DNA of 19,819 nt, from UHGV virus genome UHGV-0254309. One strand, given 5' to 3'. Both the position numbers and the translations under genes were made by a program. Of this stretch, positions 7,665 to 17,012 are shown piece after piece. The notes under the pieces are model-generated. The model was not told the origin of the DNA, made no database searches, and saw only the letters and a program-made list of their open reading frames with translations. Origin of the DNA: a virus. The first letter of the stretch is position 1. Each line of letters opens with the position of its first letter.

Positions 7665-7880
7665 TTAATCAGTAATTATGACATTTGCTGCTGCAGGACC
7701 TTTAGCACCACTCTCTACAGAGAAGGTAACCTTTTGACCTTCAAATAAGGTTCGAAAATTATCATTCTGAATCGCAGAAAAATGCACAAACACATCTTTA
7801 CTACCATCAACAGGAGAAATAAAGCCAAAACCTTTATCAGCGTTAAACCATTTTACTAAACCAGTCATTTTATTTGACAT
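7665..7880 (-). CDS. cspB: Cold-shock protein, CspA family (CspB-like)
   Basis: 71 aa, [45 protein letters not shown]..., full cold-shock domain; long upstream leader typical of cold-shock genes. Confidence 0.85.
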
Positions 7881-8815: not shown

Positions 8816-9568
8816 TTATCTCGTCACTTTTCTTAATTGCACCTCAGCATATGCTTCTTCCTGCCAGCACTTTGTAACCAGTTTATCAATGACATCTGCA
8901 TATCCTTTGTACCACTGATAATCAGTCAGGGCTGGTACCAGCTTCTGGACATGACACCGCGCCAGTGTCGTTGGTAAACGACTAAACCGGTTTCCATTGC
9001 AACGCCCACAAATCTTATAAACAGGCGCGCCATGAAGCCGGGTCCTTTTTTCATCCAGGACAATACCTTTACCCTTACACCCTCTGCACGCTGTGCTGAC
9101 TTCTCCCTTACCATGGCAATGCTGACATAGTTCCTTCACCCACTCTTCCTTGATAACAGATTCCCCGCTTCTGGAGTGTTTCACCACTTCGCGCAATACA
9201 TTATGAAATCCAGTACCTGCACAATGCTCACAGCGAGCCTTACTTGCCGCAGACCTGGAATAATCAGCAAAGGCAAAATTCACAAGGTAAGGGATGATCT
9301 GTAACCGGATTTCTTCACTCAATTTATTCAATGTCGGGTTATCCAGTGCCATCGCGTAATTGAGCAGACCTTCAATCGCAAACTGAGGATCCTGAACACC
9401 AACTTTTGCCAGGAATAAGGCAAAACCCAGTGGTGCTTTCGACTGCACCATCCCCTGCGCAGCCATCACATCCGTAATCGTTAAACCACCCGAGCCTGTC
9501 GCCGGTGCGTCATCACTCAATTTTGGAGATTTTGGGGAGTAATATTTTGGTAAGGCTTCAAGGTTCAT
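8816..9568 (-). CDS. quuQ: Late-gene antiterminator Q (Cys-rich type)
   Basis: Listed ORF starts at GTG 9610; ATG at 9568 with GGAGAA upstream gives 250 aa. Four CxxCxGxG repeats (CEHCAGTG, CQHCHGKG, CRGCKGKG, CGRCNGN). Position between nin region and late promoter. Confidence 0.75.
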   Translation of the reverse strand: MNLEALPKYYSPKSPKLSDDAPATGSGGLTITDVMAAQGMVQSKAPLGFALFLAKVGVQDPQFAIEGLLNYAMALDNPTLNKLSEEIRLQIIPYLVNFAFADYSRSAASKARCEHCAGTGFHNVLREVVKHSRSGESVIKEEWVKELCQHCHGKGEVSTACRGCKGKGIVLDEKRTRLHGAPVYKICGRCNGNRFSRLPTTLARCHVQKLVPALTDYQWYKGYADVIDKLVTKCWQEEAYAEVQLRKVTR

Positions 9569-9581
9569 GCTCGTTCTCCAC

Positions 9582-10577
9582 TTACGCCAGTACGCCTGTT
9601 GCCAGCGCACGATCGATAAAACGAAATATCAGCTCCAGCTGGGAGCCATACTTCTCTTCAAATGCCACGGTATCCGCATGCAGCTCGTCGTGATGCTTTC
9701 TGCACAAAGGCAACACAAAGAGGTCATGCGCTTTTGTTCCCATTCCACCCTGACCGTGACCTATCAGGTGGTGGGGATCATCAGCAGGCTTTCCACAACA
9801 TGCACACGGCTGTGTCTTAACCCAGCGCGTGTACTTTTCATTAACCCAGCGGCGACGTTTTGGGCGTAACATAAAAGACTCCGGCGACTCCGGATCCACT
9901 TTCAGCGCCAGCACCTTTTTTGCCTTATCCTGGATGATGCTGGTGGCAGGAACCGAAGGCACAAGGTCACTTTCCCGGGTGACAGACGGCACAACAGGCT
10001 TTGGTAATCTCAGTGCCTTACGGGCTGCACTTTCCGGTAAGGCATCCGCCAGGTCATTACGAATCAGCCACCAGCACAGTTCCGGCATTGTCACAACGTG
10101 ACTATCATCAAAACCGAGATCCCGACGCACGACAGATAACACCCAGTGGGCACAGTTATCCGTTGCCATTGATTCCAGCCGTTCCGTGAACTGATCACGC
10201 AACTGGTTATCGCAGTGCCAGCACAGACGGATTGCGCCCGGCGCGTGTCGCATTGTGGTCATGTTCTCGCTGTGCCAGTCGGAATGAGGCCACTGACAGC
10301 CCTTTTCACGAAGTAACCAGCTTTCAAGACATTCCACGCCACCAGCACGACGGATCACTGCCTCATTGCGGAACACGACCCGAACGGCAGGATCATCCGC
10401 CAGCGGTTGTGATGCCGCCGGAACGGCACCACTGGCGAAAGATGAATAACGTTCCGGCTCAGGCTCCAGCAGGACACGCCCCTGCATAAACAGGGGCATC
10501 AGCTCTGAACCTGGCCTGAACAATACGATCCCCATACGCGGGGCAATTTCAGGGGTCAGTAGTGCTCTCACGGTCAC
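9582..10577 (-). CDS. ydfU: DUF968-family phage protein (YdfU-like)
   Basis: 331 aa; C-terminal Cys/His cluster CACCGKPADDPHHLIGHG...LPLCRKHHDELH typical of DUF968. GTG start 1 nt after the KilA-N stop. Confidence 0.65.
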   Translation of the reverse strand: MTVRALLTPEIAPRMGIVLFRPGSELMPLFMQGRVLLEPEPERYSSFASGAVPAASQPLADDPAVRVVFRNEAVIRRAGGVECLESWLLREKGCQWPHSDWHSENMTTMRHAPGAIRLCWHCDNQLRDQFTERLESMATDNCAHWVLSVVRRDLGFDDSHVVTMPELCWWLIRNDLADALPESAARKALRLPKPVVPSVTRESDLVPSVPATSIIQDKAKKVLALKVDPESPESFMLRPKRRRWVNEKYTRWVKTQPCACCGKPADDPHHLIGHGQGGMGTKAHDLFVLPLCRKHHDELHADTVAFEEKYGSQLELIFRFIDRALATGVLA

Positions 10578-10578
10578 C

Positions 10579-11376
10579 TCAATGAACGGTATCGAGCAGC
10601 TTTAACAGCTCAGGGAATCGGGATTCGAAGAAATGCGGCTGCGTCTCGCGCGGATTTGCGGGACTGGTGATGTTCTTGCCGAACATGCAGCCTTTCGCTG
10701 TCAGCGACCAGAATTTTTTGATGTTGTTAATCGCGGTACGGCTGTATCGTTCGCGTTGTTCAACGATCCCCAGCTTCGCCATCTGGTGATATGCCTGATT
10801 AGCCGTAAGGCGGATACCATACTGTTTCAGCAGCGCACTCAGCGACAGCGTAGGGCGACTTGAGCCATCAGGCGCGTCAGCAGGAGCATCAATGGCATAG
10901 CGCGGTGCCAGATTCGGTAAGCCAACAGTCTCCTGGAGTTTCTGACAGGCACCAAGCACTGAAGAGTTAGACAGGTTTAACTCCCGGCGCATAAAGTCCA
11001 GCAGAATCACTCCAGCCTGCATCTTGTCAGCAGCCTGTCCGGATAATTTTTCCGGTGCGCTGGTTACCATGTCGAAAGTACGGATCACCTTCAGATGGAA
11101 TGACGGGCTTATCCACATTGCATAGGCATACACCAGTTCTTTGCAGACATACGTCCCCTGGTTATTTCCGCCACGAATAACGTTAACTGGCTCTATATTG
11201 ACCGAGTTGCAAATCTGCAACTCGCTTATTAAACGTTCAGTTTGCTCATTGCGGAGCCAAAATGCAGGCTTATGCTTATCCAGAGAACCGGCAGCCCTGT
11301 GTAGATCGTTCAGGCTGTAACGCCCATAAGCATCACGACGAACTTCAATACCATCAATGACCATCAGATTATTCAT
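10579..11376 (-). CDS. KilA-N domain protein (antirepressor-like)
   Basis: 265 aa; N-terminal MNNLMVIDGIEVRRDAYGRYSLNDLHRAAG matches the KilA-N fold. ATG preceded by GAGGAG. Confidence 0.7.
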   Translation of the reverse strand: MNNLMVIDGIEVRRDAYGRYSLNDLHRAAGSLDKHKPAFWLRNEQTERLISELQICNSVNIEPVNVIRGGNNQGTYVCKELVYAYAMWISPSFHLKVIRTFDMVTSAPEKLSGQAADKMQAGVILLDFMRRELNLSNSSVLGACQKLQETVGLPNLAPRYAIDAPADAPDGSSRPTLSLSALLKQYGIRLTANQAYHQMAKLGIVEQRERYSRTAINNIKKFWSLTAKGCMFGKNITSPANPRETQPHFFESRFPELLKLLDTVH

Positions 11377-11395: not shown

Positions 11396-11785
11396 TCAGG
11401 CGGCTGCACCCGCCGTTTTCTCGTACTTACTGATAGTGATCTCGACCTTCCCTTTCGGGATAACCGGTCCCCACTCCACCAGCATTCTTTTCACCTGTCT
11501 GTCGTCTTCCCACACACCCGCGTGGGTCAGGGCGTCAAACAGCGCCTTGTTATAGTTGTCCAGATCGCGGATCCGGTTATCCGGAGGAAACAACACGATC
11601 TCCACTGAAGCAGGTGCCGACGTTGGTTTCGGCAGACGACGTAACTGCTCAACTATTGCTGCGCACGCCGCGCTCTGGAATTTGCGCCCCGCCGCGCTTA
11701 TCAGGCTTTTACCAGCAAACGCCCCTTTGTTAGGGTGTCGCCAGTACGTATTCACGCTGGGCGGGAAAGGCAGGATCAGTTTCAT
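11396..11785 (-). CDS. rusA: RusA-family Holliday-junction resolvase
   Basis: 129 aa; MKLILPFPPSVNTYWRH...DLDNYNKALFDALTHAGVWEDD carries the conserved RusA acidic motifs. Start overlaps the upstream stop (ATGA). Confidence 0.8.
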   Translation of the reverse strand: MKLILPFPPSVNTYWRHPNKGAFAGKSLISAAGRKFQSAACAAIVEQLRRLPKPTSAPASVEIVLFPPDNRIRDLDNYNKALFDALTHAGVWEDDRQVKRMLVEWGPVIPKGKVEITISKYEKTAGAAA

Positions 11786-12108
11786 ACTTTCAGGCCTCTC
11801 TCATGTAACCAGTGGGTTGCACGCAGCCTTGCGTTTTCCTCACCGGCAAGCAGTGAGCGGATAATCCCGACAGCCTCGCTGTCGTCGTCCTTCACCGCGG
11901 TATGAAGCGTTATCCCCCGGGCCACGCCACGCTTTATCGTGATGACGCCTTTTTTCTCCAGTGCGCGAAGATGCTCCACCGCTGCATTCACTGAACGGTA
12001 TCCCAGCATGGTTGCCACCTCCTGATTGGTTGGCGGGAAGCCACGTTCTTTCTGGTAAGAAATCAGCATATCCAGCACCTGCTGCTGGCATTGAGTTAAT
12101 GTCGTCAT
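11782..12108 (-). CDS. LexA-like winged-helix DNA-binding protein lacking the peptidase domain
   Basis: 108 aa; QQQVLDMLISYQKERGFPPTNQEVATMLGYRSVNAAVEHLRALEKKGVI parallels the LexA N-terminal domain, with no S24 Ser/Lys module. Start overlaps the methyltransferase stop (ATGA). Confidence 0.65.
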   Translation of the reverse strand: MTTLTQCQQQVLDMLISYQKERGFPPTNQEVATMLGYRSVNAAVEHLRALEKKGVITIKRGVARGITLHTAVKDDDSEAVGIIRSLLAGEENARLRATHWLHERGLKV

Positions 12109-12758
12109 GCCGCCATCTCCCTGACCAGTTTTTCCGCCTGCTGGCGAACCTGCGCCAGAAAGGCCTCACCACATGCCTCAAGTTCATCGCGCCCGATGTA
12201 GCTGATTGCCGGTCCCTTCCAGGTCTTGTCGAAAACAACAATAGCACCAGCGAAGAAAGCGCCTGTCGGCACCTGCTTCTCGTCCTTCGGTATAAACCAG
12301 GCAGGCAGTTCAAAACCAATACGCCCGCGAATAAAAGCAATATGATCTGCATCTTCCGGCCACCACACTTCGCTGGTGGCAGCTTTGATCAGGAAAACAT
12401 AGCGCCCGCCTTTATCACGCATGGCACTGGCATGTTTCATGATGTAACGCATGCCGGTGATGTATTGCCCCTCATGCTGACTGGCGCGGCTGTATGGGGG
12501 ATTACCAAAGGCAGCACCTTTAAGCTCCGCAAGACGTTCTGACCAGTCATGCGCCAGCGCGTTATCTTCCGCCGTGTAATACGCTGCACATTTGGCGTTA
12601 TCACCGTCAGTAAACAGATCCAGAACAAACGGGCCAAACAGGGTGTTAATTCCCCAAAAAATGTTGTCCGGTGTGCGCCACTGATCGCCCACTTCCTTCA
12701 GTTCATGGGCTGGTTTGTTCCGCAGTTCCACCAGCGCCTGGCAATATTTATTACTCAT
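12105..12758 (-). CDS. Phage orphan N6-adenine DNA methyltransferase (Dam-like)
   Basis: NPPY motif (GNPPYS) of amino-methyltransferases. Likely start is the ATG at 12758 in a TAATG overlap with the upstream stop (about 217 aa). No adjacent restriction endonuclease. Confidence 0.8.
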   Translation of the reverse strand: MSNKYCQALVELRNKPAHELKEVGDQWRTPDNIFWGINTLFGPFVLDLFTDGDNAKCAAYYTAEDNALAHDWSERLAELKGAAFGNPPYSRASQHEGQYITGMRYIMKHASAMRDKGGRYVFLIKAATSEVWWPEDADHIAFIRGRIGFELPAWFIPKDEKQVPTGAFFAGAIVVFDKTWKGPAISYIGRDELEACGEAFLAQVRQQAEKLVREMAA

Positions 12759-13246
12759 TAAGCCCCCACGTAATTCCCTGACAGATACCACTCTTCACCC
12801 GATGCAGCGCGCTTGCAGCTTTTCCGTAAGCACCGCTCACGACGCGTCAGAAAATTGTTTCGTTCTGGCTGGGAGTGGCTTTCACGGAATGCCGCCATCC
12901 ACACGGTTGCAGCACGACGGTATAAGCCCCTTGACTCCAGTTCTTCAGTCTGGCGGGTCAGGCACAAAATCACCCGGGGATCGTTAGTGCCGACATAGAA
13001 ATTGCGCACAGGTCTGGTTTCACGAACTGGTTGTGGTTCCGGCTCCTGCGCTCTCTCAGTCAGGCGTGGGAAATGTCTGCGTGTATCTCCTTCACAACGG
13101 TGAGCCACACGCCCACTCTGACGTAACTTGCTTGCTGACTGCAGAACGCGCTGCCGTGAGTAACCTGCAAAAGCATCCGCAATGTCTCCGGAAGTACACC
13201 CCGGATGGGCTTCAATGAATTTCTGAACTTCATTCAAAAGACTCAT
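12758..13246 (-). CDS. PerC-like transcriptional regulator with an extra N-terminal region
   Basis: Segment LESRGLYRRAATVWMAAF...RRERCL resembles the PerC/Pch family core. ATG at 13246 with GGGGGTG Shine-Dalgarno 2 nt after the O-like stop; listed ORF starts at GTG 13252. Confidence 0.5.
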   Translation of the reverse strand: MSLLNEVQKFIEAHPGCTSGDIADAFAGYSRQRVLQSASKLRQSGRVAHRCEGDTRRHFPRLTERAQEPEPQPVRETRPVRNFYVGTNDPRVILCLTRQTEELESRGLYRRAATVWMAAFRESHSQPERNNFLTRRERCLRKSCKRAASGEEWYLSGNYVGA

Positions 13247-13248
13247 GA

Positions 13249-14055
13249 TCACCCCCTGAATCCTGCCGGGATCTGGCTGTAGTCCACGTTGTCGTAACTG
13301 GCTTTGAAGTACGGGTCCTCACGTCTGGCTGCAGATACCGCAGGAACTTCCCAGGATTCTTCGAAATGACGATCCGGGCCAAAGAACGTGACAGCCTGTT
13401 TCACAAATTGTGTGCCGCTGTTACCCATCGCAGATACCCAGCCCGCGTAGCGTTTCACACCTTCCAGCATGGTTTCGGGGTTTACCCCCTCATTCAAACG
13501 GGCTTTCCAGGCTTTGAAGGCTGCAGATTTTGAATTGCCACCAGCACGTTTGGGATATACCAGCCATGCCTGCTCAAACTCCGGAGAGTATTCCGGTCGG
13601 TTTGAACGAACTCGCACGGACTCATCAACTGATGCACCAACAGCTATTGGTTCATTGACTGGTTCAAAAGAGTGACTGGTTCTGGGTGAATCTCCTGCAC
13701 TACCCCCTGGTGCAACTCCTGCACTACCTGGTGAATTTGCTGCACCAGATAGTGAATTATTTGCACTACCCCCTAGTGAATCTCCTGCACCATCAAGATG
13801 AAGGAGATAGATATTACTTGAGTTACCTTTTTCACCTTTCCGGGTGACTTTTTTTACCAGCCCGGACTCACAAAGGGCCGCAATATGATTCATCACAGAA
13901 CGTTTGCTAATCTCGCACTGGTCAGCAATATGCTGGTAGCTGGGCCAGCACTCACCCTGATCGCTGGCATTATCAGCCAGCTTGATCAGAACCAGTTTTC
14001 GCAATGGATTACCCACTCGAATTTTCATCGCTTTAACCATCAGCTCCATACTCAT
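13249..14055 (-). CDS. Replication initiator, lambda-O-like architecture (N-terminal wHTH, repeat-encoded linker, C-terminal domain)
   Basis: 268 aa; N-terminal winged HTH (LRKLVLIKLADNASDQGECWPSYQHIADQCEISKRSVMNHIAALCESGLV), low-complexity linker encoded by direct DNA repeats, distinct C-terminal domain. ATG overlaps upstream stop. Confidence 0.7.
   Translation of the reverse strand: MSMELMVKAMKIRVGNPLRKLVLIKLADNASDQGECWPSYQHIADQCEISKRSVMNHIAALCESGLVKKVTRKGEKGNSSNIYLLHLDGAGDSLGGSANNSLSGAANSPGSAGVAPGGSAGDSPRTSHSFEPVNEPIAVGASVDESVRVRSNRPEYSPEFEQAWLVYPKRAGGNSKSAAFKAWKARLNEGVNPETMLEGVKRYAGWVSAMGNSGTQFVKQAVTFFGPDRHFEESWEVPAVSAARREDPYFKASYDNVDYSQIPAGFRG
13685..13798. repeat. Iteron-like direct repeats inside the initiator gene (candidate phage replication origin)
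   Basis: About five 21-24 bp repeats with core (G/A)GTGAAT..CTGCAC (e.g. GGTGAATCTCCTGCACTACCCCCT, AGTGAATCTCCTGCACCATCAAG), flanked at 13800-13860 by an AT-rich stretch. Confidence 0.6.
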
Positions 14056-14276
14056 GCTGCACCTCCGAGATGCTTCATGTTTTTTCCGGAGCGAAAGGCT
14101 ATAAGCGGCATACTGACGCGGTAATTACGGCCCAGCGGTTCACAAATCACCTTCTGACATTCACGGTCAACCAGGCTAACACGTAGAACATGCCCTGCAG
14201 GTGTGGTATACCACTGACCCGGACGAGGACAACGGAAAGTCTGATTGGTAAACCGTTTGAAAATATTCCGGATCAT
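14052..14276 (-). CDS. Hypothetical small protein (74 aa)
   Basis: Tightly packed between the Rha-domain ORF and the initiator gene, with start/stop overlaps on both sides. No recognisable domain. Confidence 0.45.
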   Translation of the reverse strand: MIRNIFKRFTNQTFRCPRPGQWYTTPAGHVLRVSLVDRECQKVICEPLGRNYRVSMPLIAFRSGKNMKHLGGAA

Positions 14277-15421
14277 TTGCGCCCCCTTACCTCTGAAGGG
14301 TTCAGCGACAAATTTATGAGGCAGGCCAGCGCCGAAGCATCATTAATATAGTCATACAAGCTAACAGCCAGCGGAGATTCGGCTTTTGCCAACATAGGAT
14401 AAAGCTGCTGCAGCCAGACCTGATGAATTGATGAAATGTAGGAATAGAGAACGCTGGCGTTATGTGCAACGTCGCTCGGTACAGGGGGTTTTGAAAGCTG
14501 TTTCTCCATCTGGTTAAAGGCATTGATATATGCCTCTTTGAACTGGGCAGCACGTTTACCCGTGAAACCCATAGCAAGAAACGCAAAGCCGTCGCGGGTT
14601 ATTTGATAGCAAGGTAGTTTGCGGCCTGATGCGTCGATGTACTCACTGAGCTGAAAATTCAGCTCAGTAAATTCGGCAGAGCATTCAAGAGACGCAATTT
14701 TTTGAATGACATTTTTGTGTTGTTTGCCGAAATAACTAGCAACAGCCAGAGAAGAAGTAACAACTTTGTCTGCAATAATGCAAAGTTCAGGTTGTACTAA
14801 GGCAGGGATCGTAGCCATGATGGCAGCCTCCGTATGCAATGGATAACTTCCACCACCGGAAACGCCAATTTCGCTGGTGGTGAACTGAGCAGGGTTGGCG
14901 TAACCGGCGCATACGGAAACCGGCGCACCTTTCGGTGCCCCCACCCAGCCCACCATAATTTGGGTATAGCTGAGTTGTAGCAACAAAAAAGACGCTAACG
15001 CGCCAATTGTCGCCGTATGCAATTCCAGGACGCCAATCCCGGCACCCGCTTTATAAGGTGCCTGAACAGTGTAACGTCCCGGAATGGCAGAATCAATGTG
15101 CTGGTGGTCCTTCACACTCAACAAAATCACGCCTGAATTTCCACAAAGGACTAAAGCACTCATGCGGGTAGTCTTTGCGAAGATAGATAACGCGCTGTGT
15201 TTCTGGTTCCCAACGAATAACATGAACATAAAGCCCTCTTCCGTCACGAAACCAGCGGTTAAGTTCCTGCACAACTCGCCCCCCACAGTCAGGTAAAGTT
15301 CTCTGTGGTTACTTACAGCCAGGTGATTTGGTAATCTGCATTCATGCCGTAACAACAGGTGTTCAGAGACGCTGACCACCAGCTGTTGCGACAAACGGTT
15401 ATTTGCCGTTAAACTGTTCAT
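14273..15421 (-). CDS. Rha-family phage regulatory protein with a roughly 200 aa N-terminal extension of unknown function
   Basis: Residues about 215-300 (VTSSLAVASYFGKQHKNVIQKI...YQITRDGFAFLAMGFTGKRAAQFKEAYINAF) match the Rha domain. Long ORF starts at an ATG overlapping the upstream stop; an internal ATG at about 14818 with GGAGG upstream would give a 181 aa Rha-only product. Confidence 0.6.
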   Translation of the reverse strand: MNSLTANNRLSQQLVVSVSEHLLLRHECRLPNHLAVSNHRELYLTVGGELCRNLTAGFVTEEGFMFMLFVGNQKHSALSIFAKTTRMSALVLCGNSGVILLSVKDHQHIDSAIPGRYTVQAPYKAGAGIGVLELHTATIGALASFLLLQLSYTQIMVGWVGAPKGAPVSVCAGYANPAQFTTSEIGVSGGGSYPLHTEAAIMATIPALVQPELCIIADKVVTSSLAVASYFGKQHKNVIQKIASLECSAEFTELNFQLSEYIDASGRKLPCYQITRDGFAFLAMGFTGKRAAQFKEAYINAFNQMEKQLSKPPVPSDVAHNASVLYSYISSIHQVWLQQLYPMLAKAESPLAVSLYDYINDASALACLINLSLNPSEVRGRK

Positions 15422-15969
15422 GCGTTAGTTTCTCCACAGACACAAAACGCCACGACGCCCGGAGCTGCACACTCGCGGGCGTCACTCTTTTCTGGAGCGC
15501 AAAAGATTTTGTAGACCAGTGCTGCATGCTCCTGGAGCTTCGAAATTGACAGATACAACTCATCATTAATTGCTGTCTGCTCGTGTGGCTCCACTACCCC
15601 ATCTTCGATTGCCGAACGAATCTGTTTTGAGTAACTCCCGATCTGTTCGATGACTTCCAGCAGGCGCTGGTTTATATCGGCGTTCTCAACTTCCTCAATG
15701 TCAGGAAGCGATACAAACACCCCACCTGCAGACTGTGCGACAGCATCCGCAATGTAGTGAGTGCCAGCCGCGCGCTGTAAAATCATTGCCCATCCCAGCG
15801 GGAAAATCTGATCGCCATCTGCACGAAGGCGGTTGAATAAAGCGTTCTCTGTTACATCCAGCCACTCAGCAGCTTCAGCGTAACCCCCCGGCAACGCCGC
15901 GATAGTTTTTCTGACAGCTTTCACGTACCACTCAGGCTGTTTTTCCACTTTCCAGTGATGCTTACCCAC
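15418..15969 (-). CDS. Early regulatory protein in the cII position (function uncertain)
   Basis: 183 aa; GTG start preceded by a perfect AGGAGGT Shine-Dalgarno and overlapping the cro-like stop. Assigned by position only; no confident family match. Confidence 0.45.
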   Translation of the reverse strand: MGKHHWKVEKQPEWYVKAVRKTIAALPGGYAEAAEWLDVTENALFNRLRADGDQIFPLGWAMILQRAAGTHYIADAVAQSAGGVFVSLPDIEEVENADINQRLLEVIEQIGSYSKQIRSAIEDGVVEPHEQTAINDELYLSISKLQEHAALVYKIFCAPEKSDARECAAPGVVAFCVCGETNA

Positions 15970-16222
15970 GGCTTACCTCCTGTTCCTGTGGTTTAAACCC
16001 ATTCTGGTTTTGGCTAGATTGAAAACGTGCCGGATAAAGAATCTGCATTTCGCTGATTTCACCCTTAAAAAAATTGGCCAGACGCTCTGCAAGATCGATA
16101 GATGGAATTTGTTCCAGTCTCTCAATACGACTCAGCGTTGCTGGATTAACCTGAACGCCCGCAGCAACATGCTGCAAAGTAAACCCGTGCGCCTTACGCA
16201 CATTTCGTAATGGTGATTGCAT
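15962..16222 (-). CDS. Cro-like HTH (XRE family) regulator
   Basis: 86 aa with helix-turn-helix (HGFTLQHVAAGVQVNPATLSRIE). Divergent from the CI-like repressor across an operator-rich region; GGAGG Shine-Dalgarno. Confidence 0.75.
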   Translation of the reverse strand: MQSPLRNVRKAHGFTLQHVAAGVQVNPATLSRIERLEQIPSIDLAERLANFFKGEISEMQILYPARFQSSQNQNGFKPQEQEVSRG

Positions 16223-16319: not shown

Positions 16320-17012
16320 ATGAACATAGGAAACCGAGTCAGACAACTTCGCCAGGCGAAGAACATGAAAATCGCCGATCTCGCTGAAGCAATAGGAGTG
16401 GATGCGGCGAATATCTCGCGCCTGGAAACAGGTAAGCAGAAACAATTCACTGAACAAGCCCTGAGTAATATTGCCAGGAGCTTAGGTGTTGATATTGCTG
16501 ATCTCTTTACCTCAGACGTCAAAAGTAATACTGTATGTAAAAACAGTATTAGTGAGGATGTTGCGCAGGTGAAGGATGTATTCCGTATTGAAATGCTGGA
16601 TGTCAGTGCCAGTGCGGGAAATGGCCTTATCCAGGGCGGTGATGTCATTGATGTGATTCATGCCATTGAATACAGAACTGATAATGCTGTATCGATGTTT
16701 GGCGGACGACCAGCCAATCACATTAAAGTTATCAACGTTCGTGGGGACAGTATGTGTCCAACCATTGAGCCAGGAGATCTCATCTTCGTTGATGTCAGTA
16801 TCAATCAGTTTGATGGAGATGGTATCTATGTATTTGGTTTTGATGATAAAATTTATGTCAAACGACTGCAAATGATACCTGACAAACTACTGGTGATATC
16901 TGATAACCAGATTTACCGTGAATGGGGAATTACCAGCGAAAATGAACACCGGTTTATGGTCTTTGGAAAGGTCTTAATCAGCCAGTCACAAACCCTTAAA
17001 CGACACAATTAA
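16320..17012 (+). CDS. CI-like prophage repressor (HTH plus S24 LexA-type autopeptidase domain)
   Basis: 230 aa; N-terminal XRE HTH (RVRQLRQAKNMKIADLAEAIGVDAANISRLETGK), Ala-Gly cleavage-site candidate (SASAGNG), catalytic Ser in GDSMCPT and Lys in VKRLQ. Confidence 0.85.
   Translation: MNIGNRVRQLRQAKNMKIADLAEAIGVDAANISRLETGKQKQFTEQALSNIARSLGVDIADLFTSDVKSNTVCKNSISEDVAQVKDVFRIEMLDVSASAGNGLIQGGDVIDVIHAIEYRTDNAVSMFGGRPANHIKVINVRGDSMCPTIEPGDLIFVDVSINQFDGDGIYVFGFDDKIYVKRLQMIPDKLLVISDNQIYREWGITSENEHRFMVFGKVLISQSQTLKRHN

Follow-up and report, generated by a model that had tools for sequence, protein, structure and literature searches.

What might a lambdoid phage gain from the DNA-binding half of LexA, freed of the domain that makes the parent repressor cleavable? 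The question is raised by the virus genome UHGV-0254309 (19,819 nucleotides, the whole of which is called the window here), in which a gene for a LexA-like protein of 108 amino acids (aa) lies on the minus strand between genes for an orphan DNA methyltransferase and a RusA Holliday-junction resolvase. An initial annotation, made from the sequence, read the protein as an uncleavable LexA mimic that could hold SOS boxes repressed or titrate LexA, took its translational coupling to the methyltransferase gene as the mark of a special pair, and proposed profile searches, a superposition on LexA and a survey of the linkage between the two genes as checks. The best explanation of the gene is that it derives from a gammaproteobacterial LexA, having lost the S24 protease/dimerisation domain and gained a two-helix C-terminal tail. 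The features on which the argument turns are the following.

11782..12108, minus strand: gene (open reading frame, or ORF, with ATG start) for the LexA-derived 108-aa protein, SfV orf42 / phrog_362 family; PF01726 present, no PF00717
11905..12108, minus strand: LexA-type winged helix-turn-helix (HTH), residues 1-68 (helices 6-22, 28-35 and 40-52, strands 56-58 and 66-68), from the model and Foldseek
11953..11994, minus strand: recognition helix SVNAAVEHLRALEK, residues 39-52, from alignments and the contact list of PMC3091678
11800..11892, minus strand: two family-specific alpha-helices (73-88 and 93-103), residues 73-103, AlphaFold2 pLDDT 86-87

The PF01726 profile (LexA_DNA_bind) covers residues 1-65 of the protein, which is to say all 65 profile positions (E 2.9e-19, 69 bits against a cut-off of 23.7), and the Peptidase_S24 profile (PF00717) found no match in it at E <= 0.01. 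The profile searches therefore bear out a LexA winged helix without an autoprotease, and, the S24 domain being absent, RecA-stimulated self-cleavage is impossible and cannot inactivate the protein, as had been claimed. The lexA equivalog profile TIGR00498 is matched at positions 1-91 of 203 only (70.8 bits, below the cut-off of 110.95), BLASTP aligns residues 1-90 with E. coli LexA at 43% identity, and a phmmer search of the PDB returned as its top match the LexA DNA-binding domain 1lea (E 6.9e-16), followed by full-length LexA. Lacking the S24 domain that defines a LexA, the protein is a LexA derivative and not a LexA. Full-length homologues down to 38-47% identity, together with a ratio of nonsynonymous to synonymous substitution (dN/dS) of about 0.2, argue that this is a real gene and not a chance ORF; a GGAG Shine-Dalgarno sequence stands 8 nt 5' of its ATG. 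The family is catalogued as phrog_362, 'transcriptional repressor', whose profile matches the protein over its full length (1-106 of 106 positions, E 1.1e-59), and NCBI names it 'LexA family transcriptional regulator'. The window protein is 98% identical to SfV orf42, and by the phrog_362 / SfV orf42 family we mean proteins of 105-116 aa composed of the domain and the two-helix tail. A search of 1.84 billion representative proteins recovered relatives that match over their full length, are 105-135 aa long and share as little as about 40% identity (P0124, P0126, P0129, P0130, P0138, P0162, P0168, P0219 and P0242).

The AlphaFold2 model (pLDDT 82.4) comprises three helices and a two-stranded wing, followed by a low-confidence linker and the helices 73-88 and 93-103. 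The best Foldseek matches of residues 1-68 are the LexA-DNA complex 3jso (root-mean-square deviation, rmsd, 1.0 A over 68 columns, 50% identity) and 1lea, so the proposed superposition on the LexA N-terminal domain succeeds; the tail of the model has no LexA counterpart. The earlier description of a LexA DNA-binding domain holds as far as it goes, and what it overlooked is the conserved extra structure, of about 40 residues, that stands in place of the C-terminal domain.

For comparison across the family, loci of three clades were taken from IMG/VR, namely a near-identical E. coli clade, a P0130-like clade (44% identity, 68 distinct proteins) and a P0138-like clade, together with single contexts of other lineages, and neighbouring genes were classed by phmmer and Pfam. 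Ala97 and Leu101 of the tail are invariant across aligned clades at 38-96% identity. The P0130-like clade, represented by 70 distinct alleles, has a dN/dS of 0.21 in the DNA-binding domain and of 0.20 in the linker and tail, and residues 73-103 (0.18-0.20) are about equal to the DNA-binding domain; these comparisons argue that the tail helices are conserved under purifying selection. From this conservation, and by analogy with other winged-helix repressors, the two-helix tail is probably a dimerisation element. MntR and CymR, in which helices likewise follow the winged helix, are among the weaker Foldseek matches (E about 0.01-0.05). In those two proteins the helices make up the dimer interface, and the analogy to the tail is weak. 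LexA itself dimerises via its C-terminal domain, which the 108-aa protein is missing; titration of LexA, as the initial annotation had suggested, is thus unlikely, and we rejected heterodimerisation as a route to it because the LexA dimer interface is absent. In the tail, Ala88-Gly89-Glu90 aligns with the LexA cleavage site Ala84-Gly85-Glu86, with no protease in cis. The dipeptide is not kept in other clades, and the notion of a decoy or trans-cleavage site was dropped since the motif is not conserved beyond the E. coli clade.

Which DNA the protein would recognise is the more difficult question. LexA contacts bases through Ser39, Asn41, Ala42, Glu44 and Glu45 (PMC3091678). At positions 39/41/42/44/45 the window protein has S/N/A/V/E where LexA has S/N/A/E/E, keeping four of the five contacts, and it also keeps His46 and the Arg64-Gly65 wing; in the family alignment Ser39 never varies and Asn41 and His46 hardly ever do. 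Retention of SOS-box specificity is plausible for the window's own clade and doubtful for the family as a whole.

We tentatively propose, at somewhat less than an even chance, that the protein is a RecA-insensitive, LexA-derived repressor that is made after induction and binds LexA-type palindromes. As the gene sits in the nin operon between the replication genes and the antiterminator gene Q, we infer that it is most likely expressed only once the prophage is induced or a cell is infected: transcription of the PR operon would yield the protein as a delayed-early product, at a time when RecA* has destroyed host LexA. It would dimerise via the two-helix tail, the dimer would bind LexA-type (CTGT-containing) palindromes as a repressor immune to RecA*, and repression would be restored at SOS-box promoters of the host, the phage and co-resident elements during lytic growth. 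Cleaved LexA binds DNA less tightly and ClpXP/Lon clear away its fragments (PMC6590174), so that a domain-only protein which is stable could make a difference at that time; there is precedent in gp6 of the Bacillus phage GIL01, a truncated phage LexA homologue that acts as a DNA-binding regulator of transcription (PMC6182141). A neighbourhood with a damage theme (RusA, DinI, and antirepressor-like KilA-N and Rha genes with SOS boxes) fits a repressor of this kind without proving it.

Several observations weigh against such a role. Glu44 is replaced in all aligned family members (by Val, Ala, Phe, Thr, Tyr or Leu), Glu45 is common to most clades and gives way to Asp, Gly, Leu or Ile elsewhere, and with these replacements SOS-box specificity cannot be assumed; were the invariant enterobacterial SOS box the target of every member, loss of Glu44 would not be expected. 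GIL01 gp6 shares 44% identity with the DNA-binding domain of its host's LexA yet binds a different palindrome (PMC6182141), which argues that sequence similarity does not fix specificity. A strong SOS box is absent from 559 kb of flanking sequence in the P0130-like clade, SOS boxes also occur in relatives without the gene such as Eeyore, and from these two facts it follows that phage SOS boxes call for nothing beyond host LexA as their explanation. In the literature on SfV orf42 and phrog_362 we found no expression, binding, phenotype or other experimental work. The uncleavable mimic of the initial annotation survives as a reasonable reading, with four of five contacts kept and a fold that matches DNA-bound LexA; given the replacement of Glu44, repression of SOS boxes is a conjecture.

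The variation of the recognition helix bears equally on a different explanation, in which the LexA scaffold has been re-targeted to a phage palindrome: like gp6, the protein would be a transcription factor specific to the phage, with an operator of its own, would activate or repress a phage promoter and would exert no direct action on the host SOS regulon. Positions 43-45 differ by clade (AVE, AAE, AFE, ATD, VLL and VFI), as would be expected of a protein co-evolving with its operators, the universal replacement of Glu44 agrees with this, and gp6 itself, a truncated LexA homologue, binds a distinct palindrome and activates a late promoter. Short LexA-domain-only proteins are furthermore found in many unrelated phages. 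We nevertheless consider a gp6-like factor possible and on balance unlikely, since the window's clade keeps four of the five LexA contacts, the Q antiterminator already serves late transcription in these phages, and a scan around the gene in the three clades gave no alternative palindrome that is conserved. That scan (6-bp arms, spacers of 2-12) returned no operator-like non-SOS palindrome and none common between clades, the SOS box of the P0138-like clade being the one exception, and half-site variants CTAT, CTCT and CTTT with N8 spacing do not occur in the window. Nor can function be transferred by homology: BLASTP gave no alignment of gp6 with the window protein at E <= 100, and the two, which share no detectable similarity, are independent truncations of different host LexAs.

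Beyond the tail-bearing type, bare LexA domains of 66-80 aa occur in many phages (BFVD matches), and P0153, P0156, P0159, P0163 and P0132 are proteins of about 160-220 aa with two tandem LexA DNA-binding domains and no S24, which would act as single-chain pseudo-dimers. There are thus at least three domain-only LexA architectures: the bare domain, the tandem double domain (about 160 aa) and the tail-bearing type. A scan of genome contigs with the family-alignment profile returned mostly host lexA genes and was uninformative except for one Kosakonia locus.

A LexA-derived repressor would require sites, and the window holds a single TACTGT-N8-ACAGTA with zero mismatches, which lies inside the divergent repressor gene.

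16529..16548, strand not assigned: perfect 20-bp SOS box TACTGTATGTAAAAACAGTA, from the motif scan, in the cI-like gene's linker between HTH and S24, codons about 70-76

The box is kept in the SfII cI and has one core mismatch in the Eeyore cI, which is 72% identical; because it is nearly conserved while its flanks have diverged, selection at the DNA level is suggested. Host LexA, and perhaps the phage protein too, are candidates to bind it, and it might act as a roadblock, as an internal promoter or as an antisense promoter. Elsewhere among the relatives, SfIV has an SOS box between its frameshifted rusA and the KilA-N gene (L083:7640-7659), and a strong box stands at the start of an N6_N4 (PF01555) methyltransferase gene 3' of Q in SfV (L082:10171-10190) and in Eeyore (L290:9326-9345). 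In the P0138-like clade a DinI homologue (PF06183, E 1e-21) lies upstream of the LexA-like gene in 19/34 loci, and in 16 of these 19 a strong SOS box stands no more than 250 bp upstream of the DinI gene.

A recurrent arrangement of that clade (L266:2780-5674 and 18 other loci) runs SOS box, dinI-like gene, 101-aa ORF, LexA-like gene, 67-aa ORF, DUF968 and Q, so that a LexA-controlled promoter appears to stand directly upstream of a block ending in the late-gene antiterminator. The conserved 67-aa ORF overlaps the LexA-like stop by 4 nt (L254:3905-4108 and 27 similar loci) and has no Pfam match; an ORF in this position follows the gene in 33/34 P0138-like loci, 28 of them with the common 67-aa type.

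Two other inverted repeats of the window were recorded. At 2418-2443, about 105 bp upstream of the small terminase gene, is the perfect repeat TACTGTAATA-TCAATC-TATTACAGTA, in which the half-sites TACTGT and ACAGTA are 14 bp apart instead of 8, and of which 13 IMG/VR contigs sharing the packaging module carry an exact copy. It could be a cos/packaging element or a regulatory site; as an operator of alternative spacing it found no support, since it belongs to the packaging module, occurs in those 13 contigs only, and was traced in retrieved loci that stop short of the LexA-like region. The longest inverted repeat in the window is the perfect palindrome ACTGAGCTGAAAATTCAGCTCAGT (14645-14668, 11-bp arms), within the Rha/Ash gene.

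We turn to the partner that the initial annotation had assigned to the LexA-like gene.

12105..12758, minus strand: orphan N6-adenine DNA methyltransferase, 217 aa from its ATG, an optional cassette, PF05869 / TIGR01712

The enzyme matches PF05869 (Dam) at E 6.9e-46 and TIGR01712 (phage_N6A_met) at 253.8 bits against a cut-off of 97.05, its NPPY motif occupies residues 86-89 (12492-12503), and the PADLOC model PDLC03263 (MTase_II, Type II methyltransferase) matches 217/217 residues. A GTG-extended version of the ORF reaches 12791; the RefSeq annotation corresponds to the 654-nt version. No restriction-endonuclease domain was found in the flanking PerC-like, LexA-like, RusA and KilA-N genes, and with no restriction gene nearby the enzyme is an orphan and the locus does not qualify as a Type II restriction-modification system. 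The DUF968 gene (four genes 3' of the methyltransferase, a borderline HNHc_6 match) is present with or without the methyltransferase. The orphan, Dam-type, NPPY enzyme of the initial annotation is accordingly confirmed by the profile matches, the motif and the lack of an endonuclease neighbour. HP1 Dam and M.EcoVT2Dam are presumably members of PF05869, and we take class beta methyltransferases such as M.EcoGII to be a different family. M.EcoGII is listed among the class beta enzymes (PMC7544214) and was set aside as a relative of the window's methyltransferase on that ground. A GATC specificity would be expected by family precedent alone, the precedent of HP1 Dam and M.EcoVT2Dam being cited in PMC7556043 and PMC6602927. 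The enzyme probably serves to keep fast-replicating phage DNA methylated. RefSeq phage records call the PF05869 methyltransferase 'phosphoadenosine phosphosulfate reductase', a misannotation whose source is probably phrog_33262, a fusion profile.

Whether the two genes belong together was examined by way of their neighbourhoods. Loci within a clade share ancestry and are not independent, so the fractions below are descriptive, are not statistical tests and overstate any association.

Near-identical E. coli clade: PF05869 methyltransferase upstream with a 4-nt overlap in 54/77 loci, PerC-like gene abutting in 23/77; RusA adjacent in 78/78 assessable
P0130-like clade: methyltransferase within 3 kb upstream in 68/80 loci, never PF05869; RusA adjacent in 77/77 assessable
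P0138-like clade (34 loci): C5, D12, MT-A70 or PF05869 enzymes within 3 kb in 12/34; RusA detectable in 10/34
Control, RusA loci of the DLP12/82 type that lack the LexA-like gene: PF05869 within 3 kb in 13/68

One could suppose from these figures that the LexA-like protein and the orphan methyltransferase act jointly, damping SOS or damage signalling set off by foreign methylation or serving in anti-defence. Methyltransferases are found near the gene in 54/77, 68/80 and 12/34 loci by clade against 13/68 in the control, and at least four Pfam families of them (PF05869, MT-A70, D12 and C5) stand directly or closely upstream in different clades. Those of the P0130-like clade are nearly all MT-A70, about 900 bp upstream and followed by a 75-aa ORF; in other lineages PF05869 alone, PF05869 with C5, or C5-D12 fusions lie immediately upstream. 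(The conserved 75-aa ORF between the MT-A70 methyltransferase and the LexA-like gene, L174:3277-3504 and 45 similar loci, has no Pfam match.) Such a joint function is nonetheless improbable. In the 23/77 loci without the cassette the upstream sequence is the same, which marks it as a precise insertion or deletion; SfIV and 2H10 likewise join PerC directly to the LexA-like gene, and the PerC-like gene is directly upstream wherever the cassette is missing. No methyltransferase gene was found near the LexA-like gene in mEp390 or in the P0130-encoding contigs L165-L168 (44% identity to the window protein). Conversely, PF05869 enzymes are encoded in 591 phage records, most of which lack the LexA-like gene and only 42 of which have the module's own enzyme in near-identical form (>=95%), and Eeyore, a relative with the same cI type, has methyltransferases in the same slot and neither the LexA-like gene nor RusA. 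Non-independent loci inflate the association, and an insertion slot at the replication/nin junction would explain the pattern without a functional tie.

The pairing of LexA-like gene and Dam-type gene is thus facultative, the survey of linkage having gone against a conserved pair, an outcome that the initial annotation had named as refuting, and the methyltransferase is best explained as an independent optional cassette and not as an obligate partner. What is left of the proposed host-manipulation or anti-defence module is the recurrence of unrelated methyltransferase families just upstream, which may reflect an insertion hot spot at the replication/nin junction or a weak functional tie.

RusA is the steadiest partner of the LexA-like gene, adjoining it also in mEp390 and in the P0126, P0130 and P0162 contexts. 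This invites the suggestion of an accessory to recombination or junction processing, one that targets or regulates the resolvase, or that represses the SOS-induced ruvAB and so opens junctions to RusA. The 4-nt overlap with rusA is kept in two clades that share only about 44% identity with each other (78/78 and 77/77 assessable loci), Eeyore has neither the LexA-like gene nor RusA, and ruvAB lies within the LexA regulon (PMC6590174). We regard an accessory of this kind as very improbable, as the gene occurs without a detectable RusA in 24/34 P0138-like loci, it persists in SfIV beside a frameshifted rusA, RusA genes of the DLP12/82 type are never paired with it (0/68), and a protein-protein interaction is purely hypothetical.

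The wider setting is the early-right (nin) operon of a lambdoid E. coli prophage, in which 12 co-directional genes run from cro to Q on the minus strand; those other than the two described above, with the divergent repressor gene, are the following.

15962-16222, minus strand: cro-like gene
15418-15969, minus strand: CII/CP76-like gene ymfL
14273-15421, minus strand: Rha/Ash gene
Between the Rha/Ash and HTH_36/DnaD-like genes, minus strand: 74-aa ORF
13249-14055, minus strand: HTH_36/DnaD-like replication gene
12758-13252, minus strand: PerC-family (YfdN) gene yfdN, PF06069 E 1.1e-07
11396-11785, minus strand: RusA Holliday-junction resolvase, PF05866 E 1.3e-14
10579-11376, minus strand: KilA-N gene
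9582-10577, minus strand: DUF968 gene, borderline HNHc_6 nuclease match
8816-9610, minus strand: antiterminator Q
16320-17012, divergent from the operon: cI-like HTH/S24 repressor

The junctions reported by the initial annotation are exact in the sequence, and RusA does lie downstream: TAATG at 12756-12760 joins the PerC-like stop to the methyltransferase start, ATGA at 12105-12108 the methyltransferase stop to the LexA-like start, and ATGA at 11782-11785 the LexA-like stop to the RusA start. Nearly all junctions from cro to Q are overlaps of 1-8 nt or short gaps, however, and ATGA overlaps are general in lambdoid nin regions (PMC8022706). The coupling is real and, because such overlaps join almost every gene of the operon, uninformative as to the LexA-like gene and the methyltransferase as a special pair. 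A promoter scan found no consensus promoter before either of these genes, and the promoter annotated within SfV orf40 was not confirmed in the scan of the window. A cold-shock-domain gene (PF00313, E 8e-32; 7665-7880, minus strand) lies between Q and the holin gene, a typical moron position.

The family is catalogued and very common, in pathogenic E. coli too, and nothing categorically new. The module, of 2 kb, is present in 2703/5426 complete E. coli genomes, and the gene occurs also in SfII, SfIV, cdtI, mEp460, 15 Stx2c phage records and three Stx2a records (two phages). E. coli K-12 is without the LexA-like gene and this RusA copy: its CPS-53 remnant (L304, NC_000913.3 2472112-2473246) retains yfdO, yfdN and a truncated yfdM (the methyltransferase, 91 codons) and is deleted beyond. 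This absence may be one reason for the lack of study. The wider proposition, that a RecA-proof LexA surrogate of phage origin is carried by about one in two sequenced E. coli strains, Stx2-phage lysogens among them, and re-silences the SOS regulon after induction, we regard as doubtful. Were it true, competing elements would have those of their genes that LexA controls (for antirepressors, colicins, toxins and defence) silenced by the surrogate, lower RuvAB would let the co-translated RusA resolve junctions, the phage's own SOS boxes (e.g. the conserved box inside cI) would be subject to feedback, and prophage content would set the length and strength of a strain's SOS response. Phage proteins that rewire the SOS response alter antibiotic-induced mutagenesis, prophage cross-induction and Shiga-toxin release.

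Among known systems, E. coli LexA (1lea / 3jso) is the closest in structure, with a shared winged-helix fold (68 residues superpose at rmsd 1.0 A, and the domains are 50% identical) and a similarity that runs on through the linker to Ala-Gly-Glu at residues 88-90. Unlike LexA, the phage protein has no S24 domain, Ser119/Lys156 dyad, autocleavage or LexA-type dimer interface, Glu44 is replaced by Val, helices 73-103 are extra, and it is encoded in a phage operon where LexA is the product of an autoregulated host gene. LexA(Ind-) mutants and the LexA 1-84 fragment are alike in concept, being LexA DNA-binding modules that RecA* cannot switch off and that would thus hold SOS promoters in repression; they are laboratory or transient host forms, whereas the C-terminus of the phage protein is different and forms a conserved extra module. 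The natural 1-84 fragment, furthermore, differs in that it binds weakly and is degraded by ClpXP/Lon (PMC6590174). The window's methyltransferase resembles the HP1 Dam / M.EcoVT2Dam type (PF05869 / TIGR01712, 253.8 bits with the latter profile) in being small, orphan and of NPPY type. DinI and PsiB act on the RecA filament to damp the SOS response. As dampers of SOS from mobile elements or the SOS regulon they offer a further parallel, a DinI homologue lying upstream of the gene in the P0138-like clade, and they differ from the LexA-like protein in acting on the RecA filament and not on operators and in having an unrelated fold.

The nearest phage counterpart is gp6 of GIL01, likewise a phage-encoded LexA DNA-binding domain without a protease, and similar in outline as the product of an early operon and a DNA-binding regulator of transcription that acts without RecA (PMC6182141). 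It differs in its size (66 aa, with no helical tail), in belonging to a tectivirus of a Gram-positive host, and in that its operator and its activation of the late promoter P3 have been demonstrated, whereas the phrog_362 family is known by sequence. Should the window protein and its kin bind SOS boxes, they would constitute a phage-encoded, non-cleavable LexA surrogate, of which we found none described; should they instead have an operator of their own, they would represent a second, independently evolved strategy of the gp6 type, in lambdoid phages of Gram-negative hosts.

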